From: a virus
DNA: 64,000 bases
Reading direction: 5' to 3' (one strand)
Virus record (IMG/VR): IMGVR_UViG_3300037424_002358
Location: 1 to 64,000 of that record
In this document: positions 49,240 through 63,342 of the stretch, one piece after another
Position numbering within the stretch: the first letter of the stretch is position 1
Layout of the letters: each line of letters starts with the position of its first letter
Notes under the pieces: generated by a model
The model's input: only the letters and a program-made list of their open reading frames with translations
Databases searched by the model: none
What the model was told of the DNA's origin: nothing
Made by a program: the position numbers and the translations under genes

Positions 49240-49768
49240 TCTTCCTGTACCACGATCCAGGCGTGGCCTGGAGTTTGGCGATATGCGAGGCAATACCTGC
49301 GGACGTGTAGGGAGATGGCCCGCCCCCTCCGCTGACCCCGCGCACGTGTTCCCGCCACTGAGCGGCGTTCACTTCACTTGTGGGACGGCTGACCAGTTCG
49401 TCCCTAACAGCCTCCACGAAATCGGAGTCGTAGTGCTTGGCGTTCATGGCAATGTGTAGCAGGGCTTCCGTCTCCGCCGTTGAGACGGCATGACCGCCCT
49501 GCTTGCTCGTTCCCCTCGACCAAATCCCCTGAATGTTATTGGCAATCTGAGCCGTCATGCTGAAGTTGCCAGGTCCGCCGACGGGTGTGCCCGCGGGTCC
49601 GCCGCCAGCGTTGCCAGCGCCACCGCCGCCCGGAGCGCTCCCCCCCACCTCGCCAGGGCGCCCCGCGTGGCCGAAATGTCCCGATCCGGGGCCTCCCCGG
49701 ACCACGCCTAGTTCGGGGAGGTCCCGGACCACAAGGTGCAACGGGTGGACGTGCTTGTGGATCGTCAC
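49232..49768 (-). CDS. putative head-associated protein with GGPGSG tag
   Basis: GGPGSGHFGHAGRPGEVGGS at 49637-49696. Confidence 0.7.
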   Translation of the reverse strand: MTIHKHVHPLHLVVRDLPELGVVRGGPGSGHFGHAGRPGEVGGSAPGGGGAGNAGGGPAGTPVGGPGNFSMTAQIANNIQGIWSRGTSKQGGHAVSTAETEALLHIAMNAKHYDSDFVEAVRDELVSRPTSEVNAAQWREHVRGVSGGGGPSPYTSAGIASHIAKLQATPGSWYRKND

Positions 49769-49770
49769 GG

Positions 49771-51006
49771 TCAGATGCGCGGGTCGCCGAAGCGGCGCTC
49801 GCCTTCCGGGATTTGGACGGCGAGCGAGAGTGCCACGCCGCGGGTCATCTCGCGCAGGTTCCAGTCAATTGTGCCGGACCGGCGGACGAGGACGGCCCGC
49901 TGGAGTAGGTAGCCATCGGGCGAGTCGACCCAACGCTGGAAGATGTACTCCTCCGGCCGCGTGGGGTTCGTGATCGCCTGCCAGCCCTCGTCCATGCTCT
50001 TCTCGACCGCCTCCTCGTAGGAGCGCAGGACGGTGCGCTCCTGGACGAGATAGCCGATCGTGCGCTGCTGGAGCGGGCGGGCCATCCACGCGTTGGAGTT
50101 GACGTTGTCGGGCCGGCGGGCGATCCGGTTGGCGAAGCCGCCGTCGAGCATCTTCTGGTCGGCATCGGCCTCGACCTCACGCTGCCGGGCCGCCAGCGAC
50201 TTCTCTTCCTCGCCGCCCCACTCGGGCGACATGTCCTTCATCGCGCCGAGTTGGCGAGCCCGCTTGCGAAGGTGCGCCTTCACCTGGCCGCGCTTCGCCT
50301 CCGGGGCGCGCCCGTAGGACTGGACGCCGTCCATGAGGTCTTCGCGGTCGGCGATGGGGTAAGACCCATCGGGAAGCGCCCAGCCCCTCTTCGCGTACTC
50401 GGCCCGCTTCTCCGGCGAGTAATCCTTGCGGATCACCAGCGGGAGCGACAAGTCGAGGAAATCGTTGCGATGCAGGCGCCGAGCGGTCAAGGATTTCTCC
50501 TCCATCGGCTTCTCCCCCGGCGCTTCTTCCTGCGCCGGCTCCCCCTCTTCCTCCTCGCCCTCCTGACCTCCGGCGATGGCTGCGTCGGCCTGTTCGAGGG
50601 CGCAGCCCACCGGGTCATCCGTCTTCACACACTCACCCAGCAGGGCGGCGGCAAACGCGTCGCGCCACTCCTGCGAATACCTCGGGTCCTGATTGTCGGA
50701 CTCTTCCTCTTCCGGCTCAGCGGCCTCTTCCTCCGGCTCGGCCAGGTTGCTCACGTTCCCGTTCTTTTTCTCTTCGGCTTTCTTCCCCTTGTCGAGCCAC
50801 GGCGGAGGTCCGGCCCGCTTCACCCATTCGCCTTGCTCGTTCTTGCGGTAGTCGTTCTTCACCGCCGACCAGGCAATGGAGGCCGCGCACGCATCCCGGT
50901 CGTCGCGCTTGGCGCAGGTGCCGTCGTAGGCACCCAGGAAGGCCGACCGCCATATCTCGGCGGCGTGGCCTTTCAGCACCGAAGGAACGGTGACCGTCTC
51001 GGGCAT
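49771..51006 (-). CDS. ChaB-domain multidomain head protein
   Basis: VLKGHAAEIWRSAF...AASIAWSAVKNDYRK...WVK; later ALPDGSYPIAD...VKAHLRKRARQLG domain. Confidence 0.8.
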   Translation of the reverse strand: MPETVTVPSVLKGHAAEIWRSAFLGAYDGTCAKRDDRDACAASIAWSAVKNDYRKNEQGEWVKRAGPPPWLDKGKKAEEKKNGNVSNLAEPEEEAAEPEEEESDNQDPRYSQEWRDAFAAALLGECVKTDDPVGCALEQADAAIAGGQEGEEEEGEPAQEEAPGEKPMEEKSLTARRLHRNDFLDLSLPLVIRKDYSPEKRAEYAKRGWALPDGSYPIADREDLMDGVQSYGRAPEAKRGQVKAHLRKRARQLGAMKDMSPEWGGEEEKSLAARQREVEADADQKMLDGGFANRIARRPDNVNSNAWMARPLQQRTIGYLVQERTVLRSYEEAVEKSMDEGWQAITNPTRPEEYIFQRWVDSPDGYLLQRAVLVRRSGTIDWNLREMTRGVALSLAVQIPEGERRFGDPRI

Positions 51007-51070
51007 GGGCCTATTCTCCCTACCGTGATTGTAGACAGAATGCAAGGGGATTGCCCGCACTTTCGCGCCG

Positions 51071-51102
51071 CCAAAAGGAAGGCCCCCGGTGGTCCGGGGG
51101 CC
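51071..51102 (-). terminator. intrinsic terminator
   Basis: GC stem ggcccccgg/ccgggggcc followed by ttcctttt on the minus strand. Confidence 0.65.
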
Positions 51103-51132
51103 ATGGCTTCGGGCTGGCGGAGGCGTGGCTGG

Positions 51133-51420
51133 CTAGGCGGTCAGTAGCCCGGACTGCCGATGGAAGACGTGTCTGGCCTCGGCGCTGGCTAGGCGGAGCG
51201 TCCCGACGTACTCCCAAGTGTCGAGCGATCCTTCTCCTCCGGGCGCGTCCTCTCCGTCGGCAACGACAGCGAAGACGTGGCTGACCGTCGGCTTGCTGTC
51301 GTCCAGGAGCATCCAGACCGTGAAGAGCGCGGGCGTCCCGTAGAAGCCGACGCAGATGGGCCTCGCCCCCTGAGGCAACTCGAGGACCGGAACGATGGCG
51401 AATGGCTTGATCGTCGTCAT
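51133..51420 (-). CDS. hypothetical phage protein
   Basis: LELPQGARPICVG...VWMLLD...EYVGT...HVF; coupled. Confidence 0.7.
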   Translation of the reverse strand: MTTIKPFAIVPVLELPQGARPICVGFYGTPALFTVWMLLDDSKPTVSHVFAVVADGEDAPGGEGSLDTWEYVGTLRLASAEARHVFHRQSGLLTA

Positions 51421-51860
51421 CGGTTCTCTGGTGTCGAAGGCACCCCGAGGGCGGCGAGCCGACGAAGGAGATTCCAGTGTGAGGAGCAGGAGCACGAATG
51501 GGTGCGCATCTCCTCGGCGGCTAATCCGGGAAGACTCAGGATTTCCCCGTCCTGCTTTTTCCAGGCGGCGCGCCCATTCACGGCGTCCTCAATGTCGGAG
51601 ACAGTCGGATGCTCGTCGCAGTCCGGGCAGTACATGAAATGGTCACCGTGCGGCGCCTTCGTGTTGACGAACGCGTCCGTGTTTAGTCGGAACCTGTGCT
51701 CGTGCGTCTTGGCCTCGGACGCGGCGATGGCGGCACGCATCTTTGCCAGCGCTTCGTTCCATCCGCGGACATAGCCATGCCCATGCTCGTTCAACTCAAT
51801 TCCATCGGTCAGTGGCTCAATATGTCCTAGCGCCACCACCTTGGTATAGGCATCATCCAT
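51417..51860 (-). CDS. mosaic small protein (ASEAK family)
   Basis: AIAASEAK segment; CPDC. Confidence 0.65.
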   Translation of the reverse strand: MDDAYTKVVALGHIEPLTDGIELNEHGHGYVRGWNEALAKMRAAIAASEAKTHEHRFRLNTDAFVNTKAPHGDHFMYCPDCDEHPTVSDIEDAVNGRAAWKKQDGEILSLPGLAAEEMRTHSCSCSSHWNLLRRLAALGVPSTPENR

Positions 51861-52122
51861 GCTTCACCTTCCCTGCGGCGGCGAGTGCGGCTAATTGCTC
51901 TTCAACGTCCATCACAACCAAATGTCGGTCGCCTTTGGTTAGTTGTCTCATGGCAACTTGATACGCCTCCACCTTGGCCTCGGACGCGGTCAGGGCGGGG
52001 ATAGGACAATCTTTGGCATGTGGTTTCTGCCCACACCACTTGCATTGTGCAACCAACGCTCCTCGTGTCGTTCGGTACTCGTTCCAACAGTTCTCCGGCA
52101 CCGTCTTGGCGTCAGTCCCCAT
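51853..52122 (-). CDS. mosaic small protein (ASEAK family)
   Basis: GGAGGT RBS; GTDAKTV, CKWC, ASEAKVEA, LAALAAA. Confidence 0.65.
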   Translation of the reverse strand: MGTDAKTVPENCWNEYRTTRGALVAQCKWCGQKPHAKDCPIPALTASEAKVEAYQVAMRQLTKGDRHLVVMDVEEQLAALAAAGKVKHG

Positions 52123-52651
52123 CGGGAACCTCCGGGAGTTTCCTCCAGTGATTAGGGCCATTGACTCGATGCTCTCTATCAACATCCGTCTCCTGCGGCG
52201 CGGCGGCGAGGGCGGCGGGTGTCTTGTCGTGCTGCCTACCGTCATAGATGTTGCGATAGCGGCCTACGAAGTAGTTAGCGCATCGGAAGTAGACCTCAAT
52301 TATTCTCGCCCGGAAGCGTGTCCTCTTGCGCTCCACCCTCACTTCCTTCTCCAGCGCCTCCACCTTGGACCGGAGTGCCACGTTCTCGGCCTTGAACTCC
52401 AGGCCCTTGCGTCGATAGAAGTCCGCGAACCCACGATTGCGCCGTGCCTTTCCTTCCAGCGCCTCCACCTTGGCCTCGGACGTAGCGAGGGAGTTCAGGC
52501 GGGCCTCAATACCCGCTTGGTCGAGGTGCTGGTCGGTGCCTTCAAGTCTCGCCTCGGCCTCTGCATGCGCGCCCGAATAGATGCGACAAGTCACGTGCCA
52601 CTTCTGCACCGCCTTGGCGTCAGTCCCCTGCGGGACGCTAGGCGCTGTCAT
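52112..52651 (-). CDS. mosaic coiled-coil protein (ASEAK family)
   Basis: GTDAKAV, TSEAKVEALE, SKVEALE, ALAAAP. Confidence 0.7.
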   Translation of the reverse strand: MTAPSVPQGTDAKAVQKWHVTCRIYSGAHAEAEARLEGTDQHLDQAGIEARLNSLATSEAKVEALEGKARRNRGFADFYRRKGLEFKAENVALRSKVEALEKEVRVERKRTRFRARIIEVYFRCANYFVGRYRNIYDGRQHDKTPAALAAAPQETDVDREHRVNGPNHWRKLPEVPDGD

Positions 52652-53181
52652 CGGGAATTCTCCTTGGCGTCGGCCATCAGTCGCTCAACAGGGTTCATCC
52701 CCTCTCGACTTTCCATCTTGGGTGCGGCGGCGAGGGTGGCCCCATCGAGAATGTGTACAACATGCTCGACTAGCCACGGCCTCCCCGGAGCATCGGGGTC
52801 GTCCTCCGAAAGAATGGCCGCAATCGCCGCCTCCACCTTGGCCTCGGACGCGGCCAGGGCGGCTACGAGGCGCAGGCGCTTGGCTATCTCGTGGGGAATG
52901 CAGCCGCCGTGACCGCGCGGGCAAATCAAGTTGACTGGCCCACCCGTCAATGACTTTCGCATGTAGACGGTGTTGCAAGTCTCGCACAGCCACTCTTCTT
53001 CGTTGTCGCGTCGCTCCAGCGCCGCCAGCCTGGCCTCGGAGGCGGCGAGGGCGTCAATGGCACGTAGTCCTAGAGGTTCAAACTCAAGTGCTAGATCAGC
53101 GTGGCTCATGGATGGTCTAGGCGTCCCCGCCCATCGCTTGCATTCTTCCAGAACCGTCTTGCTGTCAGGCTTGTCAGTCAT
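52648..53181 (-). CDS. mosaic small protein (ASEAK family)
   Basis: PDSKTV, ALAASEAR, CETC...CPRGH, ALAASEAKVEA, LAAAP. Confidence 0.7.
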   Translation of the reverse strand: MTDKPDSKTVLEECKRWAGTPRPSMSHADLALEFEPLGLRAIDALAASEARLAALERRDNEEEWLCETCNTVYMRKSLTGGPVNLICPRGHGGCIPHEIAKRLRLVAALAASEAKVEAAIAAILSEDDPDAPGRPWLVEHVVHILDGATLAAAPKMESREGMNPVERLMADAKENSR

Positions 53182-53851
53182 CGTGAGGTTCCTTGCCGAC
53201 GCCTATGCCCGGCGGCTCCACCCTCACTTGAGACCAGTTCGCATTCACGTCTTGCCCCTCCCCGGACGGCTCCGAGGCGGCGTCGTTGTCCTGCCTTTGG
53301 TAGATAGCGTCAACGGCATCGAGAATTTCGACGTTGCCATCGTCGGGAGCCAGAACGATGACGGCCCCCGTTCTCCCATCCTTCTCCTTGAAACGAAGCG
53401 CCATGTGGCCTATGCCCAGGTTGTCATCCGACTTGATGATGCGGTACAACTTTCCCGCCAGTAGAGCCGCCGCCTCAAGACCGCTCCCCTCCAGCGGCTC
53501 CACGTTGGCCTGAGTGGCGGGGTCGACCGAAACCCACATCTGATCGCCGGGTTCAACTTCGATGTGTTCACGCTCTGCCTCGGTGAAGTCTTCGGGGTTG
53601 TAGGTCACCCACTTGATGAGGCCGTGTTTCTCGGCCAGTTCCTCAAAGTCGCCTCCGTCTAGGTTCATCGAACCGTCGAAGCCGAACACCTGCACCATGT
53701 CACGCCAGAAGCCTTCCAGCACCTCCAGCCTAGCCTTCCAGGCGTCGGCGTGGGCGCGCACCAAATTGCCGGTAACGATGCGCCGATGTCGCCAGCCGCG
53801 CAGTATGTCAGCCGCCAGCGCCGTCAGGGTCTCGTGGGTGTATTCAGTCAT
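53174..53851 (-). CDS. hypothetical protein
   Basis: AGGAGGT RBS; acidic protein. Confidence 0.7.
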   Translation of the reverse strand: MTEYTHETLTALAADILRGWRHRRIVTGNLVRAHADAWKARLEVLEGFWRDMVQVFGFDGSMNLDGGDFEELAEKHGLIKWVTYNPEDFTEAEREHIEVEPGDQMWVSVDPATQANVEPLEGSGLEAAALLAGKLYRIIKSDDNLGIGHMALRFKEKDGRTGAVIVLAPDDGNVEILDAVDAIYQRQDNDAASEPSGEGQDVNANWSQVRVEPPGIGVGKEPHDD

Positions 53852-53890
53852 CGCGAACCTCCTTGGCGAGGGTGGCACCAGCAAGGGTTC

Positions 53891-54040
53891 TTAGTACCAC
53901 CAGTCTACGCCGCCTGACCCGCTCACATCGGGATGTGCGCGAAAGAAGGCCGCCCAATAATGTCCCTCCCGTACCTCCTCGTGGTATCTCCATGCCAGCC
54001 ATAGGAACAGAAGGGCAAAGCACGCCATCAAGGTGACCAT
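53891..54040 (-). CDS. small membrane protein (49 aa)
   Basis: GGAGG RBS; hydrophobic N-terminus. Confidence 0.5.
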   Translation of the reverse strand: MVTLMACFALLFLWLAWRYHEEVREGHYWAAFFRAHPDVSGSGGVDWWY

Positions 54041-54056
54041 CTAAGCGCCCTCCGGC

Positions 54057-54557
54057 CTAGCGCAGCCCGAACAGGCTGACGCCGATCAGGATGAATAACA
54101 CCGCGGCGACGGCGATTGCGCCGCCCCCCAGCAGCCCGATGACGAACGAGGGCCAGTCCCAGCGGAGCCGCCAGGCGGGTTGGAGGCCCGCGAGGTAGGG
54201 CTGTTCGAGCAGGCGGCCCTTGCGCTTCTTGACACGCTCATCGACGCCGAGTTGCAGGATTTCGACGCTCGACCCATGCTTGCCCGGCTGGCGCCCGACG
54301 ACGCGAACTAGGCCATCCCAGATCAGAGAGTTGACGGCGCTCGAAACGGTCGTGATCTTCACGCCCGTCCCGAACGGATTCTCGCTGAATAGTTCGTAGA
54401 GCGCTTCCCGGGTCGTCGGCTGGAGGTAGGCGATCGCAAGCCGCACGCGCTCCTTGACCTTCAGATCGCGCCCGGACTCGTGCAGTCGCCGCCACGCCTC
54501 CGCGGAGGTTTCCTTATAGGCGGGCGGCGGAGCGCCGAAGAGAAATTGCTGTCTCAC
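54057..54557 (-). CDS. winged-HTH protein with C-terminal TM helix
   Basis: TSAEAW...TTREAL...VSSAVNSLIWDGLVRVVG; hydrophobic tail. Confidence 0.65.
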   Translation of the reverse strand: MRQQFLFGAPPPAYKETSAEAWRRLHESGRDLKVKERVRLAIAYLQPTTREALYELFSENPFGTGVKITTVSSAVNSLIWDGLVRVVGRQPGKHGSSVEILQLGVDERVKKRKGRLLEQPYLAGLQPAWRLRWDWPSFVIGLLGGGAIAVAAVLFILIGVSLFGLR

Positions 54558-55078
54558 TTTGCCTCCTTGAGCGTCCACACCCGCATCCACAACGTGTCGC
54601 CCATCAACTGCTGGAGTTCTCGGATCGGAAGGAGCGCATCGTAGCGCACCTGCCAGCACGGGACGGGCGCATTGGGGTTCCAGTAGGGCGAGTCAGGAAC
54701 GACAACCAAGTCCTTCCTGATCCAGCCCCGGATGGCATACCGTGGCATCTCTCCCGAGACCCCAACGTAGGCATCGCACTTCCTGCCAGGGGGACGAATG
54801 GAAAAGCGGTCGCTGTTGCCCAACTTCACGTCAATCAGCCAACCGTGCCCGTTCAAGTCCTGCCCGATGGAACGCAAGAGCATGAAGGACAGGTCCGGCC
54901 ATAGGTTCAGGTACTTGGCGACGGCGAACTCGGCACCGACGCTGTTTATCGCGTTGACCAGCGGATCGCGCCTCGTGACGATCCGGTCCTTGACGTGCGC
55001 CTCGCGATCCTTCTTATCGCGCTGCCGCGCGATATGGGTGGCGATGGAGCGCTCTTCCGGCGTGAGGGGGACAATCAC
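54554..55078 (-). CDS. PD-(D/E)XK-like phage protein
   Basis: GAEFAVAKYL...QDL...IDVK...IRGWI. Confidence 0.6.
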   Translation of the reverse strand: MIVPLTPEERSIATHIARQRDKKDREAHVKDRIVTRRDPLVNAINSVGAEFAVAKYLNLWPDLSFMLLRSIGQDLNGHGWLIDVKLGNSDRFSIRPPGRKCDAYVGVSGEMPRYAIRGWIRKDLVVVPDSPYWNPNAPVPCWQVRYDALLPIRELQQLMGDTLWMRVWTLKEAK

Positions 55079-55130
55079 GCGGAGGTTCCCCTGTAGGCGG
55101 GGGGAGGAGCACCGAAGAGGAACTGTTGGG

Positions 55131-55793
55131 TCACGCGTTCCGCCAATGGGCTGACTTCAAGCCACGATACTTATTCCGATCACTCATGTATCTTCGGAAC
55201 TCATCGCCTGTCATGTTGCCTTTGACGACGTTGCAATTGGCGCAGGACGCTACCGTATTGTCGGGCTTATCTGACCCCCCACGGCTTGTAGGGATCACGT
55301 GGTCGACATGCCAACCGTCAACAAAGGTCAGCGGCTCATGACAGTACGCGCACTGACCATCGGAACGAGCGTAGCACGTGAGACGCCTAAGAAAGACTCG
55401 CGTATTGTCCACCTGACCGGGCCAGTCCTTAGTCACAATCGTTCGCATCAGGAGGCGTTCTGCACGCGCTTCCGCCTTCCGCTTTTTCTCATGGGCCTCA
55501 CGACGCTCTTGTATGGTTCGTTGGTGGCCACCCCAAAGTCTAGCGACGAGCGCGTCAATATCATCTGCGCTTTGCGCGTATATGAAGAACCAATCGTGGT
55601 AGTTATTTTGGGCCAACGACCACCGGATGAGACGTTCTACTCGGGCAATGGCCCTCGCCGCCACCAACATCCAGTCCTCGGGCAGTTCGGATAGGCGACC
55701 GGGTTCTACGACTACTTCTGTGCGCGGCTCACCATCCTCTATTCTCACGCCGAGTGCGATCCCCGGAAGGATAGCCGTGCTCCATTCGCGCAT
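55131..55793 (-). CDS. HNH endonuclease
   Basis: CAYC...HVDHVIPTSRGGSDKPDNTVASCANCNVVKG. Confidence 0.9.
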   Translation of the reverse strand: MREWSTAILPGIALGVRIEDGEPRTEVVVEPGRLSELPEDWMLVAARAIARVERLIRWSLAQNNYHDWFFIYAQSADDIDALVARLWGGHQRTIQERREAHEKKRKAEARAERLLMRTIVTKDWPGQVDNTRVFLRRLTCYARSDGQCAYCHEPLTFVDGWHVDHVIPTSRGGSDKPDNTVASCANCNVVKGNMTGDEFRRYMSDRNKYRGLKSAHWRNA

Positions 55794-55800
55794 AATTTGC

Positions 55801-55830
55801 ATTGTACCTTATACGGTACTAGGCTGTCAA
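55801..55830 (-). promoter_or_regulatory. sigma70-type promoter with TACC-N6-GGTA operator
   Basis: TTGACA-18-TACAAT; taccttatacggta at 55805-55818. Confidence 0.85.
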
Positions 55831-55842
55831 GCCCCCGTGGGG

Positions 55843-56565
55843 CTACTCCCCCGCCCACTCCGGTAACGGATTCAGCGGCCCGGCGAACGTGAGCGGATGA
55901 GCCATCGCGGGGATGAAGCCGCTCTCGCGGTAGAAGGTGACCTTGCGATCAACCCGCGCCGGATCATCCCAGGAGTAATGCAGGAGGCACAGTGGGGGGA
56001 GGATGTCCAGCACCCGGTGGCTCAGGTGGACGTCGCCGAGGACGGTGTCGCCGACCCGGAAGTCGTAGGCGGGCGGCTTATCTACCGTCCAGAAGTCCAG
56101 CGGTCCCCGCCACGCCCAAAGGCTCGGCTCCCACCGCTCGTGCGCCGGCTCCGGCTTCGCCATGTGCGGGAAATGCTGGTCGGTCCCCCACAGGTAGAGC
56201 CGCACGGCCAGGGCGAAGTCGGCGTCGGTCCCCTCGAGCAGATCGCGGCCCGCCTCCCGTAGCAGTCGGTTGGGGCGGCAGTCGCAGTCGTCGTACACAA
56301 TCCAGTCGGGGGCAAGTTCGTTGGCGCAGGCGATGAGGTGGTTGGCGTGGCCGGAGTCGTTGTTGCGCCAGAGGCCGTTAGCGAGTTGCACACGCTCGCC
56401 GAATGGACGAAGCAACACGTTGGGGAAGCGCGAGGCAATGGAAATCGTGTCGTCCAGACTCCCCCCGTCCGAGACGATGACCTGGTCGGCCCACCGATAG
56501 GACTCGCAGAACGGGCCGATCCTGCGGGACTCGTCGCGGGTGCGGACGATGACGACGATCTTCAT
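55843..56565 (-). CDS. GT2 family glycosyltransferase
   Basis: VIVRTRDE, VSDGGSLDDT, WIVYDDCD, LLHY. Confidence 0.85.
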   Translation of the reverse strand: MKIVVIVRTRDESRRIGPFCESYRWADQVIVSDGGSLDDTISIASRFPNVLLRPFGERVQLANGLWRNNDSGHANHLIACANELAPDWIVYDDCDCRPNRLLREAGRDLLEGTDADFALAVRLYLWGTDQHFPHMAKPEPAHERWEPSLWAWRGPLDFWTVDKPPAYDFRVGDTVLGDVHLSHRVLDILPPLCLLHYSWDDPARVDRKVTFYRESGFIPAMAHPLTFAGPLNPLPEWAGE

Positions 56566-56650
56566 AGGGGAAACGCCTCCCCGCCGCTCGGGCGGTCTGA
56601 TTACCGGCCAAACGTCAAGGGACGGAGCCACGGACGGCGAAGCGCAATGC

Positions 56651-56884
56651 TCACGGCAGGGGCAGGCTCTCCCTGAGCGACTGCGCCGCCCGTAGCAGGC
56701 AGGCGGCGCAGTCGGGGTTGTAGGCGACGAGGTCCCTCAGGAAGTTGGCGGCATCGTCGACCGCCTCGTTGTAGACGAACCGGATGCGCTCCCGGCTCTC
56801 CATCGCGGCCGTCCGCGTCTCCAACACCTGAACGATCATCGCACCGGACGCAACCTTATCTTGAGCGGGAATATGGTCAGCCAT
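56651..56884 (-). CDS. hypothetical protein
   Basis: GAGG RBS; short ORF filling the gap. Confidence 0.5.
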   Translation of the reverse strand: MADHIPAQDKVASGAMIVQVLETRTAAMESRERIRFVYNEAVDDAANFLRDLVAYNPDCAACLLRAAQSLRESLPLP

Positions 56885-56978
56885 CGTTGCCTCGGGGGGA
56901 AAGTTCCAGGGCCGACACGCCGAGCCGGCCCTGGATGGCCTTGGAGGAGAACCACGCCGCCCCCAATTCTACGTCAAA

Positions 56979-57710
56979 TCACCTCGGGCAAGCCAGGCAG
57001 TGCGGGTGCCACGCCCGGCCACCGGGCTGCGCCAGCCGGGCCTGGATCGCGGCGTGGACGCCGTTCCAATGCTCGGCCAGAGGAACCTCGGGGAAGGTCC
57101 CGAGGTTGAAAATCCCGATCATGTCGTCGCAGCAGAGGAGGTACTGCCGCCGGTGGTTGATGATGAGCCGCATTGCCGGCTCGATGCACGGGTGGCCCGC
57201 GTGGGCCTTCGCCAGGGCGACGACGTCGAACTTGGGCGAGAAGTGGGTCGGGATGTGCTCCGACATGGTGATGATCTGCGCCTCGGTATGGTGGAAGAGG
57301 GTGCGCATCCAGGCCGCCCGTTCGCTCTTCATCGGCTCGTCCATGTAGAGCGTGATGATAATCCGGTCGAGGACCGGATCGAGCGCCGCCGCCAGTTCGG
57401 GCGTCAGGTAGTCACCGTTCGTGTTGAAACCGACGCGTTTGAACTTCCCGTGGCGCCGGACCTCGGCCGCGATCTCGACGATCCGCTCGTCCATGAGCGG
57501 CTCGTTGTAGTGTGACAGCCACACGCCGCCCGAGAAGCCCATGCGGACGGCCTGGTCGAGTGCCTCGCCGATCACGTCCACCTCGAGGTAGTGCGGCTCG
57601 AACCACGAGGCCACGGCCTCGCGGTCAGGGATCGAGTTGCGCAGGCAGGTCGGGCAGCGGCGGTTGCACGACGAGACAGTTTCTAGGTCAAGAAATTGGA
57701 ACAGGCTCAC
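56979..57710 (-). CDS. radical SAM protein with SPASM/twitch domain
   Basis: CNRRCPTC, YNEPLMD, NTNG, C-terminal C...LCCDD...CLAC. Confidence 0.9.
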   Translation of the reverse strand: MSLFQFLDLETVSSCNRRCPTCLRNSIPDREAVASWFEPHYLEVDVIGEALDQAVRMGFSGGVWLSHYNEPLMDERIVEIAAEVRRHGKFKRVGFNTNGDYLTPELAAALDPVLDRIIITLYMDEPMKSERAAWMRTLFHHTEAQIITMSEHIPTHFSPKFDVVALAKAHAGHPCIEPAMRLIINHRRQYLLCCDDMIGIFNLGTFPEVPLAEHWNGVHAAIQARLAQPGGRAWHPHCLACPR

Positions 57711-57916
57711 CGCTCAGCCCGCTTGGCCCGCTTCCGCCGCAGGTAATTGAGCCGGCGGCGGCAGATGCTCCGCCGGTGGTCGCATTCGCCCGTCACGTAG
57801 CATTTGCACTTCGGGCACCAGCGCCAGATCGCGCCGTTCACGTGTTCGCCCCTCCGGGGGTAGCGGTGGATGTGGCCCCAGGGAGCAGCCTCGGAGGCGA
57901 TCCGATAGGAGGTCAC
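57707..57916 (-). CDS. small basic Cys-rich protein
   Basis: CPKCKC...C...C; coupled. Confidence 0.5.
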   Translation of the reverse strand: MTSYRIASEAAPWGHIHRYPRRGEHVNGAIWRWCPKCKCYVTGECDHRRSICRRRLNYLRRKRAKRAER

Positions 57917-57918
57917 GT

Positions 57919-59349
57919 CTAGTTGCCTGGGCCGATCCACCCGGAGGGGACAGCGCCGGGACTGGTCTCCAAGCACACCTGCCCGGCGCAGAAGTAGACA
58001 TCCCGTTCCGGCTGTGCGGCCGGCGTGAACTGATTGATCTTGTCGTCGATGAGGATGTCCCCGTAGACCCCCACGAACATGCCGACCATCTTGATGGGGT
58101 GGCAATCCAGGCCCGGCTCAGTACAGTCCGCGTTCCGTTGGCCGAAGCGCGTGGTGAAGCCATCAGCCGTGATACGTCCGGGTCGCGGGTCGGTATCGAA
58201 GCCGGCTAGGTTGTCCCATGCGCTCGGAATGGTCCCGGCTACCTCGTGGACGTTGGCCGTGCTGTTGTTGTATCGACACTGCGTCGGGTTGTAGTCCACC
58301 CCGCCGTTGTACGAGCAGACAAATGGCCAGGTGAACGGATGGACGAGGTCCCGGCTGTCCAGCACTTGGTATCCGTCCCGCACCCGGAACAGCAGGCGGA
58401 AGATGGACGAGGTCTGCGGTCTGGCCCCTGAGCCGGTCCGCTTCCCCGTTACCGTGCTGTTGACGTTGGCGTTGTGCGACAGGATGAACGGGATATCAGG
58501 ACGGCAGCCTGGAATGCCGGTGTAGGCGCAGTCCGCCGACCAGTAAGGTCCCCTCGGCGTGTCATACGAGGGCAGGAAGGTGTTGGGATAGGGCAGCAAC
58601 GTGCCTTGGTAGGGTGATACTCGTTGGCCGTACTCCTGCAATTGGTTCGTGAACAGGTAGCCGCAGTCGCTTGGGCTGGCCGGGTTACACACCTTCAGGA
58701 GCGCCACGCTGGAATGGATCGACCCCTCGAGTTCCATCCGGGCGTCTCCGAAGTCATGGAACTGGATGGCCGCCGCCTCCACGCAGTAGGTCGCTCCCTC
58801 GAAGCCCGCCTGGCACGGTCCGGGGACATCCAGCACCACGTCCCACTTGAAGCCGCCGTGCTTCATCGTGTTCTCGATGGGACTGGACGGGTTCGTATGT
58901 CCTACGCCCACGCCGCCGATGAGCGCCCGCAGGTCGAAGCCGGGGAAGGCCGCAAGCCTGTCCGCTGTGAACGGGTTGTCGCCGTGCTCATGGTCGTAGT
59001 GGCAGCCGCGCACTCCGTCCCAAAGCGTGTGGAAGATGCTCGTGTCGTGGACGCCGTTCGAGTCCGGGCATAGCGGCGCTCCGGGGTACGCTACCACGCC
59101 CCCCGGGGGCACCGTTGGGACGCCCGCCGTTGGCGATGCGGTCAGCGTGGCGGTCGCCGTCGCCGATACCGCTACGGTCGGCGTAGGGGTTCGTGTGGTC
59201 GTCGGTGTAAGCGTAGTCGTCGTTGGCGTGCGCGTCGTCTTCCCTTTGAGCGTCGCTGTCGGCGTTGGCTTTACTTCGTCTTTGCTGGCCATCAGCGACA
59301 GAACAACCACCACCCCTAACAACGCACCTATCAGCGTCAGTTTTCTCAT
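57919..59349 (-). CDS. secreted Thr/Pro-rich, Cys/His-rich protein
   Basis: signal anchor MRKLTLIGALLG..., long PT stalk, GCHYDHEHGD domain. Confidence 0.8.
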   Translation of the reverse strand: MRKLTLIGALLGVVVVLSLMASKDEVKPTPTATLKGKTTRTPTTTTLTPTTTRTPTPTVAVSATATATLTASPTAGVPTVPPGGVVAYPGAPLCPDSNGVHDTSIFHTLWDGVRGCHYDHEHGDNPFTADRLAAFPGFDLRALIGGVGVGHTNPSSPIENTMKHGGFKWDVVLDVPGPCQAGFEGATYCVEAAAIQFHDFGDARMELEGSIHSSVALLKVCNPASPSDCGYLFTNQLQEYGQRVSPYQGTLLPYPNTFLPSYDTPRGPYWSADCAYTGIPGCRPDIPFILSHNANVNSTVTGKRTGSGARPQTSSIFRLLFRVRDGYQVLDSRDLVHPFTWPFVCSYNGGVDYNPTQCRYNNSTANVHEVAGTIPSAWDNLAGFDTDPRPGRITADGFTTRFGQRNADCTEPGLDCHPIKMVGMFVGVYGDILIDDKINQFTPAAQPERDVYFCAGQVCLETSPGAVPSGWIGPGN

Positions 59350-59374
59350 CACATCACCTCGATTGGCCCCTGCG

Positions 59375-60685
59375 TCACGGCAGGATGCCCTCGGCTCGCA
59401 GGAGCGCGTCCGTTTCCTTCCAGAAGGCGTCAATCTCCTCCCGGCTGAGGCCGGACGTGCTGACGAAGGCGCCATGCGGCAGCCCCGGATCACCCCGGAA
59501 GAAGAACTCCTCGGGCACTTCCTGCTCCAACTTGATGTCGTAGTCCTCCATGTGCGTCACGAGTGGCGTGCCAGGGAATGGGATCAGGCGGTCGAAGCCG
59601 GCCCGCTCAGGTCGATGTTTGAGAATCCAGTCGCGGGTGCGCTCCATGCTCTCGCGCGTCTCGCCCGGCAGGCCGAGGATGAAGGACATCTTGAGCGTGA
59701 TCCCGAGTTCCTTGCACCAGCGCAGCACGTCCTCGTCCTGCTCGATGGTCGTGCCCTTGTGGATGTTTGCCTTGATCCGGTTGTCGGCGCTCTCGACGCC
59801 GACGAAGCACTCGATCAGCCCGCCTTCGCGCAAACGCTCCATGTACTCCCGCCCGCCGTACTTGGCGATGATGTCGGAGCGCAGGAAGCAGCGGTAGACT
59901 AGGCCCCCATACTTCCGGTGCAGGTCCAGCAGCGCCAGCGTCCGCGGTCGGTTCAGCGGCATGATGTCGTCGTAGTAGGCTAACCCGGTGAAGCCCATCT
60001 CGACGATCTCGCGTATCTGCTGTTCGACGGAGTCGACGGACTCATAGCGCACGCGGTCGCCCCAGATGACGCCGTGCCGGCCACTCTCACAGAACGCGCA
60101 GGCCATGGGGCATCCGCGAGTCGTGAAGAGCGAGGCCATCCGGTGCTTGAAGCCGACACGGTCAGCCATGTACGAGTGATAAGCGAGGTTCCAGCGGCGG
60201 ATGGGGGGTAGCACCCAGTCCAGATCGCGGCGGAGCATCGGCATGAACAGTCGATCGCCGGACGCCTGTGCCAGTTCGAGGGTCCTGGCGACCGTGTCCG
60301 GGTGGTCGCCCTCGCCAGCGACAACCAGGTCGAAGGGGCGCCCGGAGCCGTCCGCTCCTACGGCCAGCGCAGCCGAGGGGTTCGCCCAGGGGGCGGCACC
60401 ACCGAACACGGTCCGAGACTTGGTCCACCCGTCCATTGCTCGGGCGATCCGCCGCACCTCGAACATCTGCGGCGAGGTGGCCGACAGCCACACCTGGTGG
60501 AAATCCCCGTCTTCCATCGGCAGCCGGTGGCCATCCCACTTCGGACTGGTCAGCGACATGTCGAAGAACTCGACCTCGTGCCCCTGCGCCTCGAGTTGGG
60601 CGGCGATATACCACAGCCCCAGCGGGGGCCAGACCATGGGGTCGGTGAGGAACGTGGACGGGGGGAACAGGAGGGCGACGCGCAT
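59375..60685 (-). CDS. cobalamin-binding radical SAM protein (class B methyltransferase-like)
   Basis: PPLGLWYIAA, VFGG, GEG, TTRGCPMACAFC, GVES, FILGLPGET, PFPGT. Confidence 0.92.
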   Translation of the reverse strand: MRVALLFPPSTFLTDPMVWPPLGLWYIAAQLEAQGHEVEFFDMSLTSPKWDGHRLPMEDGDFHQVWLSATSPQMFEVRRIARAMDGWTKSRTVFGGAAPWANPSAALAVGADGSGRPFDLVVAGEGDHPDTVARTLELAQASGDRLFMPMLRRDLDWVLPPIRRWNLAYHSYMADRVGFKHRMASLFTTRGCPMACAFCESGRHGVIWGDRVRYESVDSVEQQIREIVEMGFTGLAYYDDIMPLNRPRTLALLDLHRKYGGLVYRCFLRSDIIAKYGGREYMERLREGGLIECFVGVESADNRIKANIHKGTTIEQDEDVLRWCKELGITLKMSFILGLPGETRESMERTRDWILKHRPERAGFDRLIPFPGTPLVTHMEDYDIKLEQEVPEEFFFRGDPGLPHGAFVSTSGLSREEIDAFWKETDALLRAEGILP

Positions 60686-60921
60686 TAGTGCGAAGAGTCT
60701 AGCAGAAATTCCGTTGCGCGGAGGCATCTTACGCGCCCGGAATGACCACGGGCCCGTGTGCAATCACAGGCCCGTGCGCGTTCTCGCCCCGTTTGCCTTC
60801 CCGCTAGGGCTTGGTCGAATTCAACGACCACCGTGTAGGACGCCGCTTTCGCCAGCGCGTCGCCCGTGGGGCCGGGGCAGCCGCGAGGAGGCTCCTCAGC
60901 CAGCGAGTCTACCACAAAGGC

Positions 60922-60955
60922 GCAGGCCCCGACGCGTGGGGAGGTCGGGGCCTGC
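60922..60955 (-). terminator. intrinsic terminator-like hairpin
   Basis: gcaggccccgac / gtcggggcctgc 12-bp stem. Confidence 0.65.
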
Positions 60956-60989
60956 TATGCGTTCACTCCGCCGGGGGCGGGTGGTGAGC

Positions 60990-61313
60990 CTATTGTACTG
61001 AGTCCTGGGCCACCTGCAAGCGCTTCGCTAGGTCCATGACCACCTGGGCGTCAGCCCGGTTCAGCAGTTGCATGCTTAAGAAGCACGGCATGCCGTTGAT
61101 GCCCCGCGGCCCCGACTTGTCGACGTACTCGAAGATCAGCCCGAGGTCCGACCCTTGCAGTTCCGCGATCTGCGATGGCTTCATGAGCGCGAGCGGCATG
61201 AAGGCCAGCCGGAGATCGTCGGCCCGGCAATGATGGTCGGTGAACAACTTTCCGGCGAGCCAGTCAAGCGCCAGTTGCCGCAGTTCCTCCCGCGTTCGTG
61301 ACGAGATCGACAT
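60990..61313 (-). CDS. hypothetical phage protein
   Basis: FMPLALM...IFEYVDKSGPRGINGMPCFLS. Confidence 0.65.
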   Translation of the reverse strand: MSISSRTREELRQLALDWLAGKLFTDHHCRADDLRLAFMPLALMKPSQIAELQGSDLGLIFEYVDKSGPRGINGMPCFLSMQLLNRADAQVVMDLAKRLQVAQDSVQ

Positions 61314-61980
61314 CGGAGCCTTCGCTGGTCGCGGCTTCCCCGACCTGGGGCGCCCCCGCGCTTTCGCTGGACGGCGGTTCTTCGGCAACGGGTACCTCCT
61401 TGCCTTCGTACTTCGGGCGCCATGCTTTGTCGGGCCGATCATAGTGCATCGGCATGATGAGGACGTAGGGACCGCCGTCAACGCCAGAGCAAAGTTCAAT
61501 CGGTGCCCATCCCTCTTCCTGCTCGGCTTCGCCGATGGCCCGCTTCCCATAGAAGCGGAGAAGCACGGCGCTATGTCCCGTCCTCCAACCTTTCGGTGCC
61601 ATCTCAATGAACGCGTTGAGCGCGTCCCGCAGGAAGACGGGGTTGAGCGCGATGATGGCCGACGGTTCGTCGTGGGGGAGGATGGAAGAGAAGTCCGGGA
61701 ACTTCTTGATGTGCTCCTCCTCCTCGAGGATCAGCGGCCCCTTGCTCGTCGGTGGGATGAAGATCGGCCTGACGTAGCGCGCGTCCGGCCACCCGTCGGG
61801 TGCCTCGACCGCCTGTAGGCGGACGCCGTCGCAGGCCACCAGCGCGTCGCCATGGCGGGCGATGACACCTAAGTCGTGCCGGTCCGGCGCGGTGCCCTTC
61901 GCCAGCCAGCGCGCGATCTTCAGGACCTCGGCTGGCGGGTGCCAAATGGTAAAGCGGCGGGGGAACGTGTCATCTTCCAT
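61264..61980 (-). CDS. truncated beta sliding-clamp-like protein
   Basis: LVACDGVRL, KFPDFSSILP, IALNPVFLRDAL, VLIMPM. Confidence 0.65.
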   Translation of the reverse strand: MEDDTFPRRFTIWHPPAEVLKIARWLAKGTAPDRHDLGVIARHGDALVACDGVRLQAVEAPDGWPDARYVRPIFIPPTSKGPLILEEEEHIKKFPDFSSILPHDEPSAIIALNPVFLRDALNAFIEMAPKGWRTGHSAVLLRFYGKRAIGEAEQEEGWAPIELCSGVDGGPYVLIMPMHYDRPDKAWRPKYEGKEVPVAEEPPSSESAGAPQVGEAATSEGSDVDLVTNAGGTAATGA

Positions 61981-62002
61981 TGATCTGCCTCCGAATGAAG
62001 AT

Positions 62003-62206
62003 TCAGGCTGGCTTCGATGGCTCGGACTCCAAAGTGTAGAAGCGGTAATCCTCCCGTCGCGGCAGGTCAGCATGGGCGAGGAAGAAGTCGCTCACCCGTT
62101 CGACGATCTCGGAGTGCGACGGCAGTCGTTCCTCCCGGAACGAGAACGAGGCTATAGGTTCCCCGTCCTCACGGCAAAGCGTCAGAAGATAATCGCGAGC
62201 GGTCAC
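62003..62206 (-). CDS. hypothetical protein
   Basis: AGGAGGT RBS, GTG start. Confidence 0.6.
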   Translation of the reverse strand: MTARDYLLTLCREDGEPIASFSFREERLPSHSEIVERVSDFFLAHADLPRREDYRFYTLESEPSKPA

Positions 62207-62283
62207 GGTGACCTCCTTCGCCCGGACGGAAGCAGGCCGACGGCTTTGCGGCTCCGTCGGCCTGTTGGCTCCGATTGGAAATG

Positions 62284-62454
62284 CTATTCGCTAGGTTCCT
62301 CGCTCACCCGCGGCCGAATGACGGCGACCACGTCGCCCTCGTCCGTCGGGATCGGCGGCAAGACGGGGATTTCACGTTCATACGAGCGGTCAGCGCCCTC
62401 GGCCTCTACGACCGCCTGACGCAAGCGCTCCCGAGTTTCATCGGTTACGGGCAT
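62284..62454 (-). CDS. small acidic protein (56 aa)
   Basis: GGAGGT RBS; first gene after the promoter; MPVTDETRERLRQ... Confidence 0.6.
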   Translation of the reverse strand: MPVTDETRERLRQAVVEAEGADRSYEREIPVLPPIPTDEGDVVAVIRPRVSEEPSE

Positions 62455-62489
62455 GCGGACCTCCCTGTCGCCCGCGGGCGAGCAGGACC

Positions 62490-62518
62490 AGTATATACCG
62501 CCTGCGGTACCATGTCAA
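62490..62518 (-). promoter_or_regulatory. sigma70-type promoter with TACC-N6-GGTA operator
   Basis: TTGACA-17-TATACT; taccgcctgcggta at 62496-62509. Confidence 0.9.
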
Positions 62519-63342
62519 GGGGTCACGACGGTCATTTTCGCCCGGAAATCTCTGCGGGTCGTGAGCAGGCCAGCCTGGGCTAGTTCTTCCGCCAGCCCCG
62601 CCAGAGCGGCCCGGTGCTGGCCCTCGCCGAAGCCCCACTCGGCGACGGCGGCGACCCGGAGGAAGACGCCGGTATCGGAGCGGCCCCACGTCCAGCCGCT
62701 CACGCCGAGGTCCTGCGCGGCAGCCTCAATGGCGGAGCGCAGGTCGGGCGTCAGCGGCGTCCAGAACTCCAATTCGCTCACGGGTTCGCCCTCGCCCTCG
62801 CCAGCCGCCTCCATGATAAGGACGCTCTCCTGCCCGAACATCTCGGCGGTATCCCGCAGAAGTTCCAGCGCTTCGCCGTCCCCGCGATAGCCGACGACCC
62901 AGGTCGGCTCGTGGGTGACCTCGCCTGTGTCCTGGCGCGTGTAGCCGCCGACGCCCGGAGCCACGGTCACATACGAGACCGTGGAAATCTCCCGTAGCCG
63001 TTCCCCGAAGACTCGCATCTCCTGAAAGACCTGCTTGGCGGGGATGCCTGGCTTAGCGGACGTGATCCCGACGGCCTTCGGCCCCGGCCCGCCTCCGGGC
63101 TGACTGCCCCCCACCTCGCCCGGACGCCCCTCGTGTCCGAAGTGCCCTGATCCAGGGCCACCACGTTCTACGCCGAGAGGCTCCGGGACGATCTCGAACG
63201 GGCCGTCGTCCATCGTGATGAGATGCCCGCCCACCTCGACCGTTTCGCCCTCAGTCAGGCGGACGAACTGCGCGCCGGTCACCTGCGTCCGGCTACCGCT
63301 GTAGCGCTCAGCACCTTCGTAGCGGTCCATGATGAAGCCCAT
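62515..63342 (-). CDS. putative head-associated protein with GGPGSG tag
   Basis: GGPGSGHFGHEGRPGEVGGS at 63103-63162, followed by an unknown domain. Confidence 0.75.
   Translation of the reverse strand: MGFIMDRYEGAERYSGSRTQVTGAQFVRLTEGETVEVGGHLITMDDGPFEIVPEPLGVERGGPGSGHFGHEGRPGEVGGSQPGGGPGPKAVGITSAKPGIPAKQVFQEMRVFGERLREISTVSYVTVAPGVGGYTRQDTGEVTHEPTWVVGYRGDGEALELLRDTAEMFGQESVLIMEAAGEGEGEPVSELEFWTPLTPDLRSAIEAAAQDLGVSGWTWGRSDTGVFLRVAAVAEWGFGEGQHRAALAGLAEELAQAGLLTTRRDFRAKMTVVTP

Follow-up and report, generated by a model that had tools for sequence, protein, structure and literature searches.

A recurrent 20-residue peptide before unrelated phage protein modules: a possible head-maturation cleavage site

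Results

The window analysed here, 64,000 nucleotides in length, represents positions 1 to 64,000 of a complete phage genome of 111,962 bp. On its minus strand it encodes copies of a short glycine-rich peptide, here called the header (consensus R|GGPGSGHFGHxGRPGxVGGS-xP), along with head-assembly genes and the end of a giant polyvalent protein:

45911..47098, (-): major capsid protein, 395 aa; homologues 67-76% identical adjoin the protease in relatives
47024-47038, (-): capsid F-V-x-R|A, Arg24|Ala25, a putative cleavage site
47194..49293, (-): putative S78-like prohead serine protease plus scaffold-like part, assigned by ESM Atlas likeness, gene position, and conserved Ser and His residues
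48346..48360, (-): LEERS, protease residues 312-316, directly after the protease domain
49232..49768, (-): ORF A, 178 aa; 24-residue leader, header, Gly-rich linker, ~110-residue module
49637..49696, (-): header copy 1, GGPGSGHFGHAGRPGEVGGS, residues 25-44 of ORF A, after Arg24
49771..51060, (-): ChaB-domain protein, 429 aa (PF06150, E 4.2e-9)
62515..63342, (-): ORF B, 275 aa; N-terminal domain, header and linker, two-lobed module
63103..63162, (-): header copy 2, GGPGSGHFGHEGRPGEVGGS, residues 61-80 of ORF B, after Arg60
63345..64000, (-): module 10 ('JAB-like ORF'), the C-terminal module of the polyvalent protein, whose frame continues past the window end

A 40-residue query picked out 12 places in the whole 111,962-bp genome (E from 3.5e-21 to 1.1e-9), two in window ORFs and ten within the polyvalent protein, and the resemblance among these copies is far beyond chance. 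A preliminary description of this DNA had reported two ORFs 13.5 kb apart that share 19 of 20 residues, at 49637-49696 and 63103-63162, with LGV(V/E)R before and xPGGG after both copies. Both ORFs are real and their shared residues and flanks are as described, but the main carrier, the polyvalent protein, had been missed; the JAB-like ORF at the window edge, rightly named as a possible further member, is part of a frame that holds ten more headers. Copies 1 and 2 differ at 11 nucleotides, comprising, as had been counted, 10 synonymous codons and one non-synonymous change (A/E). Arg precedes all 12 copies, Pro stands two residues past the final Ser in all 12, and 18 of 32 aligned columns are invariant. 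Besides Gly, the header conserves His, Arg, Pro, Ser, and one aromatic residue, and a Gly-rich linker comes after it. Among the 66 copy pairs (23 codons), codon differences are 821 synonymous vs 107 non-synonymous, and the Ser codons include both TCN and AGY types. Since synonymous sites are scrambled to this extent, the data support selection on the header peptide rather than on the DNA, as had been proposed from two copies. The header is predicted to be disordered, without a fold of its own (AlphaFold2 mean pLDDT 56, 137-row alignment).

ORF A lies directly upstream of the protease gene, in a place that in syntenic relatives holds a header-bearing ORF or a ChaB fusion; its module matched no known family (no Pfam at E<=0.01, none in NCBIfam). 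In ORF B, AlphaFold2 predicts a small folded domain at about residues 16-52 and a two-lobed alpha+beta module at residues 89-275, with the header and linker (residues 55-86, pLDDT <50) between the two folded parts. This module shows a weak predicted resemblance to phage S-adenosylmethionine lyase (in Foldseek, 6zm9 at 22% identity, E 1.4e-3, and TM 0.41 by target; in Pfam, a sub-threshold match to PF23780, E 0.0027), and its homologues include both stand-alone proteins and last modules in polyproteins. An alignment places an acidic linker in the ChaB protein of this phage where homologues have the header; in ChaB homologues of related phages the header is internal (L016) or forms the joint to a C-terminal module (L035).

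The polyvalent-protein frame is open over genome positions 63345-71294 (2650 codons), its longest ORF being 63342-71285 (2647 aa). Ten headers, the first past the window edge at 64008-64067, split it into 11 modules of 129-318 residues, and only three modules give a family signal: module 0 is 2H-phosphoesterase-like (PF13563, E 4.5e-5), module 9 has an HEVGH motif, and module 10 matches Prok-JAB faintly (E 0.069, 13.5 bits, cut-off 25). Module 10 contains HSHPSGRAFSPED; the signature metal site of JAB/MPN proteins is H-x-H ... S-x-x-D. The ESM Atlas gives no family name for this module. The gene order is terminase (phrog_38, 9.4e-80), portal-MuF fusion (phrog_2662 and phrog_2468, about 1e-11), a 175-aa ORF, and then the polyvalent protein, a short distance downstream of terminase and fusion.

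No protease family in Pfam, PHROG, or NCBIfam matched ORF 47194-49293; in the ESM Atlas its feature score is 0.92, and 16 of 30 matches fall in PF04586 clusters (TM 0.37-0.59). The protease domain spans about residues 118-306, the C-terminal part is Ala/Pro/Glu-rich and scaffold-like, and H193, S252, H260, and H262 are invariant in the 80 sequences aligned from 82 homologues found. This putative S78-like protease is a candidate reader of the Arg|Gly-Gly site. Its LEERS segment follows the family pattern I-x-L-E-E-[R/K]-S-M, with position 315 being R in 63/80 and K in 16/80 sequences, and may be a self-cleavage site, cut after Arg315. Among the hydrophobic-x-R-small sites that the preliminary description had listed, LEERS is conserved, whereas VVERT and MAVRS fall in mostly-gap columns. 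The major capsid protein ORF had no family match in Pfam or PHROG searches. In an alignment of six related capsid proteins, about 20 variable N-terminal residues are followed by a conserved F-V-x-R|A, with Arg present in all six and the next residue Ala in five and Gln in one. This pattern of hydrophobic P4, specific P1, and small P1' matches known prohead-protease sites, such as the A-X-E|S of SPN3US (PMC10052503).

A header profile searched against 1.84 billion protein clusters matched 3121 clusters at E<=1e-3 and 627 at E<=1e-10, and the best 150 of the 3121 contain 651 header instances, 2-9 each; most clusters have more than one copy. Of 147 proteins, 85 have the first header <=40 residues from the N-terminus, and one has the last header <=40 residues from the C-terminus; by the same 40-residue measure, 104 viral-contig ORFs have it near the N-terminus in 42 cases and near the C-terminus in one. 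With 12 copies in this genome, 3121 clusters elsewhere, and this N-terminal bias, the motif search that had been called for bears out a portable unit before unrelated domains. Cargo modules include ADP-ribosyltransferase (ART), 2H phosphoesterase, NUDIX, zeta-toxin, ParB-nuclease, and zincin domains. Most modules of header-bearing clusters belong to no known family. A decayed header, or an acidic linker in its place, is seen in some homologues.

The flanks of 45 of 57 loci hold terminase, portal, MuF, protease, or capsid genes, and header and cargo come after portals of three Pfam families. Header carriers lie in head-assembly gene blocks, next to portal, MuF, and head-protease genes or fused with them, with many fusions to portal or MuF; this context lends support to the capsid-related reading in the preliminary description. 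No match to the header was found in Pfam, the PDB, or the literature, nor was a cultured phage with the header found. When 137 header instances were compared with Pfam, none matched DUF7211, and three gave single weak unrelated matches at E<=1.

The residue before Gly-Gly is uniform within a phage and differs by lineage (R, K, D, N, E, or L/A). Identity at this position is 0.84 within proteins vs 0.27 between them (153 proteins, 641 instances), the largest such gap among 34 positions. Counted by locus, it is R in 41/41 instances for this phage's protease family, K in 13/13 for PF04586 loci, and D in 7/7 for one DUF2213 cluster and L/A in 41/42 for another; two further records, L022 (D) and L055 (L/A), both with DUF2213, agree. 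In the covariation check proposed in the preliminary description, the residue appears to track the neighbouring head-protease family, across four protease clusters. With many loci being near-duplicates, this circumstantial signal represents about four independent lineages and is inseparable from shared descent.

Discussion

The explanation we favour, and consider a little short of an even prospect, is that the header is a head-maturation cleavage site, cut in this phage after Arg by the S78-like protease encoded at 47194-49293. The header would be the conserved, disordered opener of each cargo module in a capsid-associated polyvalent effector system. The bond cut by the protease would be the one joining the lineage-specific residue, Arg in this phage, to the header's Gly-Gly, and the invariant Gly-rich 20-mer would provide an extended, accessible recognition stretch that stays on the new N-terminus. 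Within the prohead, the polyprotein together with ORFs A and B would give rise to some 13 individual proteins that could exit with the DNA. The case for cleavage after Arg is circumstantial: the residue before Gly-Gly is uniform within a phage and follows the protease family, and similar R|small sites are conserved in the protease (LEE[R/K]|S, 79/80) and at capsid N-termini (5/6, with R|Q in the sixth). A preprint by others reports that phi24B virions contain a polyvalent protein of 2811 residues (bioRxiv 10.64898/2026.04.10.717836); that protein has no header copy. Against cleavage, quite different head-protease families would all have to accept one 20-residue core, and a plain cut site needs no 20 conserved residues. 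First modules need no cut, yet they carry headers, behind leaders as short as 'MR' (P0304) or 6-8 residues. Many loci of this protease family have no header within 10 kb, and the decay or acidic-linker replacement seen in some homologues also counts against a cut site.

The 20-mer might instead be a cargo-loading tag that docks modules to a conserved prohead part, with the capsid interior, scaffold core, portal, or MuF as proposed partners and any cleavage secondary. This is the reading of the preliminary description, and such a tag would be akin to the T4 capsid-targeting sequence or an encapsulin cargo-loading peptide; we regard it as fairly unlikely. There is about one header per module, even on first modules with very short leaders, and tandem stand-alone single-module genes each open with leader and header, as a tag would suggest. 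The core is constant despite differing portal, terminase, and protease families, suggesting either a partner common to all of these phages or a role intrinsic to the core itself, and a Gly-rich linker comes after it as in cargo-loading peptides. However, portal- or MuF-fused modules carry the header though they would need none, the carriers' capsid and portal proteins are so diverse that it is difficult to see how a single peptide could bind every one, the same module loses its header in some homologues, and a pure tag leaves the lineage-specific residue before Gly-Gly unexplained.

Processing by the polyproteins' own peptidases, either zincin-like modules or the JAB-like last module, acting in the head or after injection, is a quite improbable alternative to cleavage by the head protease. 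Zincin-module processing was proposed by Iyer et al. 2017 (PMC5512222, in its available text), and HExxH is abundant in header-bearing ORFs (44 in 117,587 residues vs 5 in 149,949 of neighbours; 125 vs 12 expected from composition in 217 library proteins). The present polyprotein has both HEVGH and the faint JAB-like module, and P0210 consists of leader, header, HEIGH module, and XkdF protease. On the other hand, 31 of 57 loci, L049 with its 12 headers and L055 with its 14 among them, lack HExxH in every header-bearing ORF of the stretch analysed, only 7 of 57 loci have a homologue of the JAB-like module, and the JAB assignment itself is weak, at the E-value given above and with no ESM Atlas family. 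It is very improbable that the header is only a passive, flexible spacer that nothing reads specifically and that stays similar through exchange of module-plus-spacer cassettes among phages. The header is predicted disordered, can decay while its module persists, and gives way to an acidic low-complexity stretch in ChaB homologues, but its invariant columns persist despite scrambled synonymous sites, not only Gly is conserved, headers stand at N-termini where a spacer is unnecessary, and the residue before Gly-Gly is uniform within each phage.

In encapsulins, cargo-loading peptides consist of a short Gly-rich peptide plus flexible linker that sends diverse enzymes into an HK97-fold shell; they are usually C-terminal, different in sequence from the header, and uncleaved. 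Cleavage of T4 head proteins falls after Glu. The T4 capsid-targeting sequence is a short N-terminal peptide common to unrelated internal head proteins, removed by the prohead protease (gp21) and portable to foreign proteins; as described in the available text of PMC9958956, it has ~10 residues and occurs at N-termini only, in few T4 proteins, whereas the header has at least 20 residues and is also found between modules, in thousands of protein clusters. In SPN3US/phiKZ-like phages, ejection and head proteins undergo propeptide cleavage: the prohead protease acts on many head proteins at A-X-E, a short motif that favours Val at P4 and Ser at P1', mostly removing N-terminal propeptides of 20-254 residues; in the available part of that account (PMC10052503) the motif comprises three residues, with no conserved downstream block and no polyprotein junctions.

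Phage-type polyvalent proteins (Iyer, Burroughs, Anand, de Souza, Aravind 2017; PMC5512222) are likewise giant multi-domain proteins encoded beside portal/MuF genes. Among their conflict domains are ART, 2H phosphoesterase, zincin metallopeptidase, RadC/JAB, and ParB, and they are predicted to be packaged, processed, and delivered with DNA. Our 11-module protein shares the several unrelated domains (2-15) of that class and its head-morphogenesis location beside portal/MuF. No recurrent junction peptide was found in the available text of PMC5512222, and the header is also found on single-module genes. PF23847 (DUF7211), a 25-position family of unknown function with a GVKGMKWGVR-like short junction motif, occurs in header-bearing phages before an ART module and after portal-NUDIX, but differs from the header in matching 0 of 137 header instances. 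In the MuF polymorphic toxins of temperate phages, the MuF head protein is fused at its C-terminal side to toxin domains that vary (Jamet et al. 2017, PMC5576092), and the main text of that study describes no header, glycine linker, conserved motif, or cleavage.

The processing of polyvalent proteins becomes testable, since the bond is defined (Arg|Gly-Gly here) and a candidate protease is named. If the header marks capsid-carried proteins that are released into the host, its 20-residue profile would be a cheap finder of the first-strike enzymes of uncultured phages, and would show where to divide giant proteins into domains for study; if it is portable, it could serve as a tool to load foreign proteins into phage particles. 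A broader and, in our judgement, unlikely generalization is that the header is a 'pack-and-release' signal of tailed phages, with a protease-tuned residue before it. The invariant disordered 20-mer would then be recognised through some feature that very different proheads or portals share, or alternatively might act as a threading end for ejection through the tail. Were this true, header fusion would load any protein into the capsids of many phage lineages, and the header profile would index thousands of injected anti-defence enzymes in metagenomes.

A recurrent peptide header in one phage genome

The preliminary description had picked out a glycine-rich peptide of 20 residues in two ORFs of the window. 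As it stated, the two copies are identical at 19/20 residues, their 11 nucleotide differences comprising 10 synonymous codons and 1 non-synonymous one, and both are flanked by LGV(V/E)R and xPGGG. The virus record is complete (111,962 bp, with a 127-bp terminal repeat), and a search of all of it with a 40-residue stretch returned 12 matches (E 3.5e-21 to 1.1e-9), 10 of which lie inside a single open frame. The ORF called JAB-like at the edge of the window, proposed earlier as a further member, proved to be the final 218 codons of this frame, whose ten header copies split the encoded polyprotein into 11 modules of 129-318 residues each, numbered 0 to 10. The genes of the region are on the minus strand.

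Features of the header-bearing region, in gene order
Large terminase, minus strand, phrog_38 (9.4e-80), first in gene order
Portal fused to a MuF-like head-morphogenesis domain, minus strand, phrog_2662 and phrog_2468, after the terminase
Genome 71395-71922, minus strand, 175-aa ORF between the portal-MuF gene and the polyprotein, beyond the window
Genome 63345-71294, minus strand, polyprotein of 2650 codons; module 0, 2H-phosphoesterase-like (PF13563, E 4.5e-5); module 9, HEVGH in a zincin-like context; module 10, faint Prok-JAB match (E 0.069)
62515-63342, minus strand, ORF B, 275 aa, header GGPGSGHFGHEGRPGEVGGS at 63103-63162
49232-49768, minus strand, ORF A, 178 aa, header GGPGSGHFGHAGRPGEVGGS at 49637-49696
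47194-49293, minus strand, 699-aa ORF, candidate prohead protease with a scaffold-like part

From the 175-aa ORF the order runs through the polyprotein and ORF B to about twenty assorted genes, including two radical-SAM enzymes, a glycosyltransferase and an HNH nuclease, and then to a ChaB-domain protein, ORF A, the 699-aa ORF and the major capsid protein. The 175-aa ORF, which had no match in the family search, is kept at the same interval in 6 related loci. The radical-SAM genes, of which one encodes a B12-binding domain, and the glycosyltransferase, at window positions 56979-57710 and 59375-60763, are located between the header-bearing genes, an unusual cargo for a block of head genes. The TGA stop of the ChaB ORF precedes the GTG start codon of ORF A by 2 nt and is in a different frame (window 49766-49773); the 2-nt offset of the frames rules out in-frame read-through between the two ORFs. 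In one relative (L035), a ChaB protein is joined via a header to a C-terminal module.

In all 12 copies an Arg stands directly before the header and a Pro two residues past its final Ser, and 18/32 aligned columns are invariant. Codon differences between copies are synonymous in 821 cases and non-synonymous in 107 (66 pairs, 23 codons), nucleotide identity averages 77%, and Ser is encoded by both TCN and AGY. This synonymous excess and nucleotide divergence indicate strong purifying selection on the peptide while the DNA has diverged, in agreement with the earlier claim that the peptide rather than the DNA is selected.

Position and predicted disorder

In 85 of 147 library proteins from the profile search, no more than 40 residues separate the first header from the N-terminus, whereas in 1 of them the last header comes as close to the C-terminus; a median of 260 residues follows the last header. 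By the same 40-residue measure, 104 distinct complete ORFs of viral contigs gave 42 N-terminal cases versus 1 C-terminal case, their leader lengths being upper bounds because ORF calling uses the most upstream start. Leaders can be as short as 6-8 residues, one ORF B homologue beginning Met-Arg-Gly-Gly, and copies are spaced by a median of 205 residues (n=455). The N-terminal bias, short leaders and spacing together indicate about one header ahead of each module; the peptide is thus a header and not a symmetric linker. First modules that lack it are often portals or similar proteins.

AlphaFold2 modeling of a 44-residue stretch, run on a 137-row alignment, returned a mean pLDDT of 56 and no secondary structure. 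In the model of ORF B, residues 55-86 fall below 50, flanked by a small domain on the N-terminal side (81-87) and by the C-terminal module (about 80). The header is therefore predicted to be disordered.

Distribution in uncultured phages

A profile built from the 12 copies in this genome was scored against 1.84 billion representative proteins. The motif search suggested in the preliminary description thereby reached 3121 proteins at E<=1e-3; stricter cut-offs of E<=1e-10 and E<=1e-30 left 627 and 79. The 150 best-ranked proteins, 502-2546 residues in length, together contain 651 instances, with 2-9 matched stretches per protein. The 602 strict instances have the consensus [K/R/L/A]-GG-x-GSG-[N/H]-[F/H]-G-H-x-G-R-P-G-x-[V/I/R]-GG-S, in which the invariance of G, S and H is by construction, these positions being set by the search pattern. 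In viral contigs, the best 80 of 254 matching stretches correspond to 57 loci, where headers occur in same-strand tandem gene arrays and multi-header giants; the fetched flanks contain terminase, portal, MuF, protease or capsid genes in 45/57 of these loci. Portals of three Pfam families (PF06381, PF06074, PF04860) are followed by header and cargo, and the modules at headers include MuF, an XkdF-type protease, ADP-ribosyltransferases (ART-PolyVal among them), 2H phosphoesterases, NUDIX, zeta toxin/AAA_33, ParB-like nuclease, GNAT, ChaB and Ntox50. In one locus (L020:1575-4265), an intein-like insert with LAGLIDADG and homing-endonuclease domains splits a Mu-type portal gene, and a header follows at residue 758.

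A second junction motif, GVKGMKWGVR-like and spanning 25 positions (Pfam DUF7211), occurs in phages that also use the header, before an ART module (L023:5000-5692, residues 63-76) and after a portal-NUDIX protein (L022:1672-4128, residues 717-729). Variants of the type G-L-K-G-V-W-GG-S (L044, P0256) look intermediate between the two motifs.

The header was found in uncultured material only. The profile search of genome contigs gave 9 loci, every one on a metagenome-assembled-genome contig; two short contigs (L070, L071), binned to Methanospirillum and Methanotrichaceae, could be archaeal viruses or binning errors. A tblastn search of 50,697 phage records with the 40-residue stretch gave no match, possibly owing to the BLAST low-complexity filter. 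The header is absent from four cultured viruses reached by module homology: Aphanizomenon phage CL131, Agathobaculum phage AB434P2, cyanophage PSS2 (gp030 region) and halovirus HVTV-1. The 2807-residue protein detected in phi24B virions gave 0 header matches (hmmsearch, all filters off, E<=100). No Pfam match naming the motif was returned for 137 header instances at E<=1, and no PDB chain matched the header profile at E<=10.

The residue before GG

Identity within and between proteins was compared at 34 positions in 153 proteins with at least three copies (641 instances). The residue before GG has the widest gap, 0.84 within proteins versus 0.27 between them, followed by the N/H position (0.84 versus 0.42); positions farther upstream are near random (0.09-0.33 within proteins). 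This front residue is R in 41/41 instances from six loci with the protease family of the 699-aa ORF, K in 13/13 from four loci whose protease belongs to PF04586, D in 7/7 from six loci with one DUF2213 cluster, and L or A in 41/42 from six loci with another. DUF2213, a possible protease, occupies the place of the protease or scaffold gene. Two further records with DUF2213 agree (L022, D; L055, L/A), and three have none of the three families searched. In other loci the front residue is consistently N, D or E. Because near-duplicates are common among the loci, the match between protease family and front residue amounts to about four independent lineages.

A candidate protease and a proposed maturation-cleavage model

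The 699-aa ORF matched no curated protease family, but residues 100-480 group by ESM Atlas features with Peptidase_S78 clusters (score 0.92; 16/30 matches; structural TM 0.37-0.59). It has 82 homologues, one of which (P0270) bears a header of its own at residues 82-110, and an 80-sequence alignment shows invariant His193, Ser252, His260 and His262. We consider it a candidate prohead protease and reader of the header. Just past its protease domain, I-x-L-E-E-[R/K]-S-M is conserved (R in 63 and K in 16 of 80); loci whose protease has Lys at this site were without headers in the flanking sequence. In six relatives the capsid protein begins with ~20 variable residues, after which comes a conserved Arg, followed by Ala in five and Gln in one. 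Both sites share the form of Φ-x-x-R|GG, and the sites of this phage recall those of the SPN3US prohead protease, A-X-E|S with Val preferred at P4, as given in an excerpt of PMC10052503.

The most economical model, which we favor tentatively, is that the header is a maturation-cleavage junction of polyvalent proteins carried in the capsid; cleavage would separate the lineage-specific residue from GG, with the 20-mer as an exposed recognition stretch. This model leaves unexplained both the conservation of 20 residues across phages with different protease families and the headers on first modules whose leaders are trivial. For these two reasons the cargo tag proposed in the preliminary description, although doubtful, stays alive. 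Processing of the header by zincin peptidases embedded in the polyproteins would fit the strong enrichment of HExxH in header-bearing ORFs (44 in 117,587 residues, versus 5 in 149,949 residues of neighbors), but header ORFs lack HExxH in 31/57 loci (best 80 of 254 stretches), making it improbable. The pattern of selection makes a passive spacer unlikely.

Other ideas were dropped. A ubiquitin-like tail cut by the JAB module fails on JAB-like homologues in 7/57 loci (best 80 of 254 stretches) and on D, N, E or L/A before GG in other lineages. AT-hook-like DNA binding via GRP meets Glu after GRPG in 317/602 instances, and metal-assisted self-cleavage at S-x-H meets Asn for His in 326/602. A 2A-like translational skip gives no account of N-terminal headers, and a relic of a GGPGSGK P-loop is suggested by resemblance only.

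Relation to known systems

The kind of system is already known: polyvalent proteins, capsid-targeting and propeptide cleavage. According to excerpts of the sources, capsid-targeting and propeptide cleavage occur in T4 (PMC9958956), propeptide cleavage in SPN3US (PMC10052503), and a polyvalent protein was seen in phi24B virions (bioRxiv 10.64898/2026.04.10.717836). By the usage of Iyer et al. 2017 (PMC5512222), the 2650-residue protein counts as a phage-type polyvalent protein. No description of the recurrent header, of the N-terminal rule or of the lineage-tuned front residue turned up in the literature searched, where supplements may show the motif in alignments. The strings GHAGRPG, GHEGRPG, GHSGRPG, GRPGxxGGS, GHxGRPG and GSGNFGH were not found there, and 'GRPG' together with 'phage' led to unrelated papers only.

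Family signals are rare among the modules. The cargo module of ORF B has a two-lobed alpha+beta fold, the first lobe weakly resembling phage SAM lyase (6zm9, E 1.4e-3; PF23780, E 0.0027). If this likeness is real, ORF B would be an anti-restriction enzyme that carries the header.
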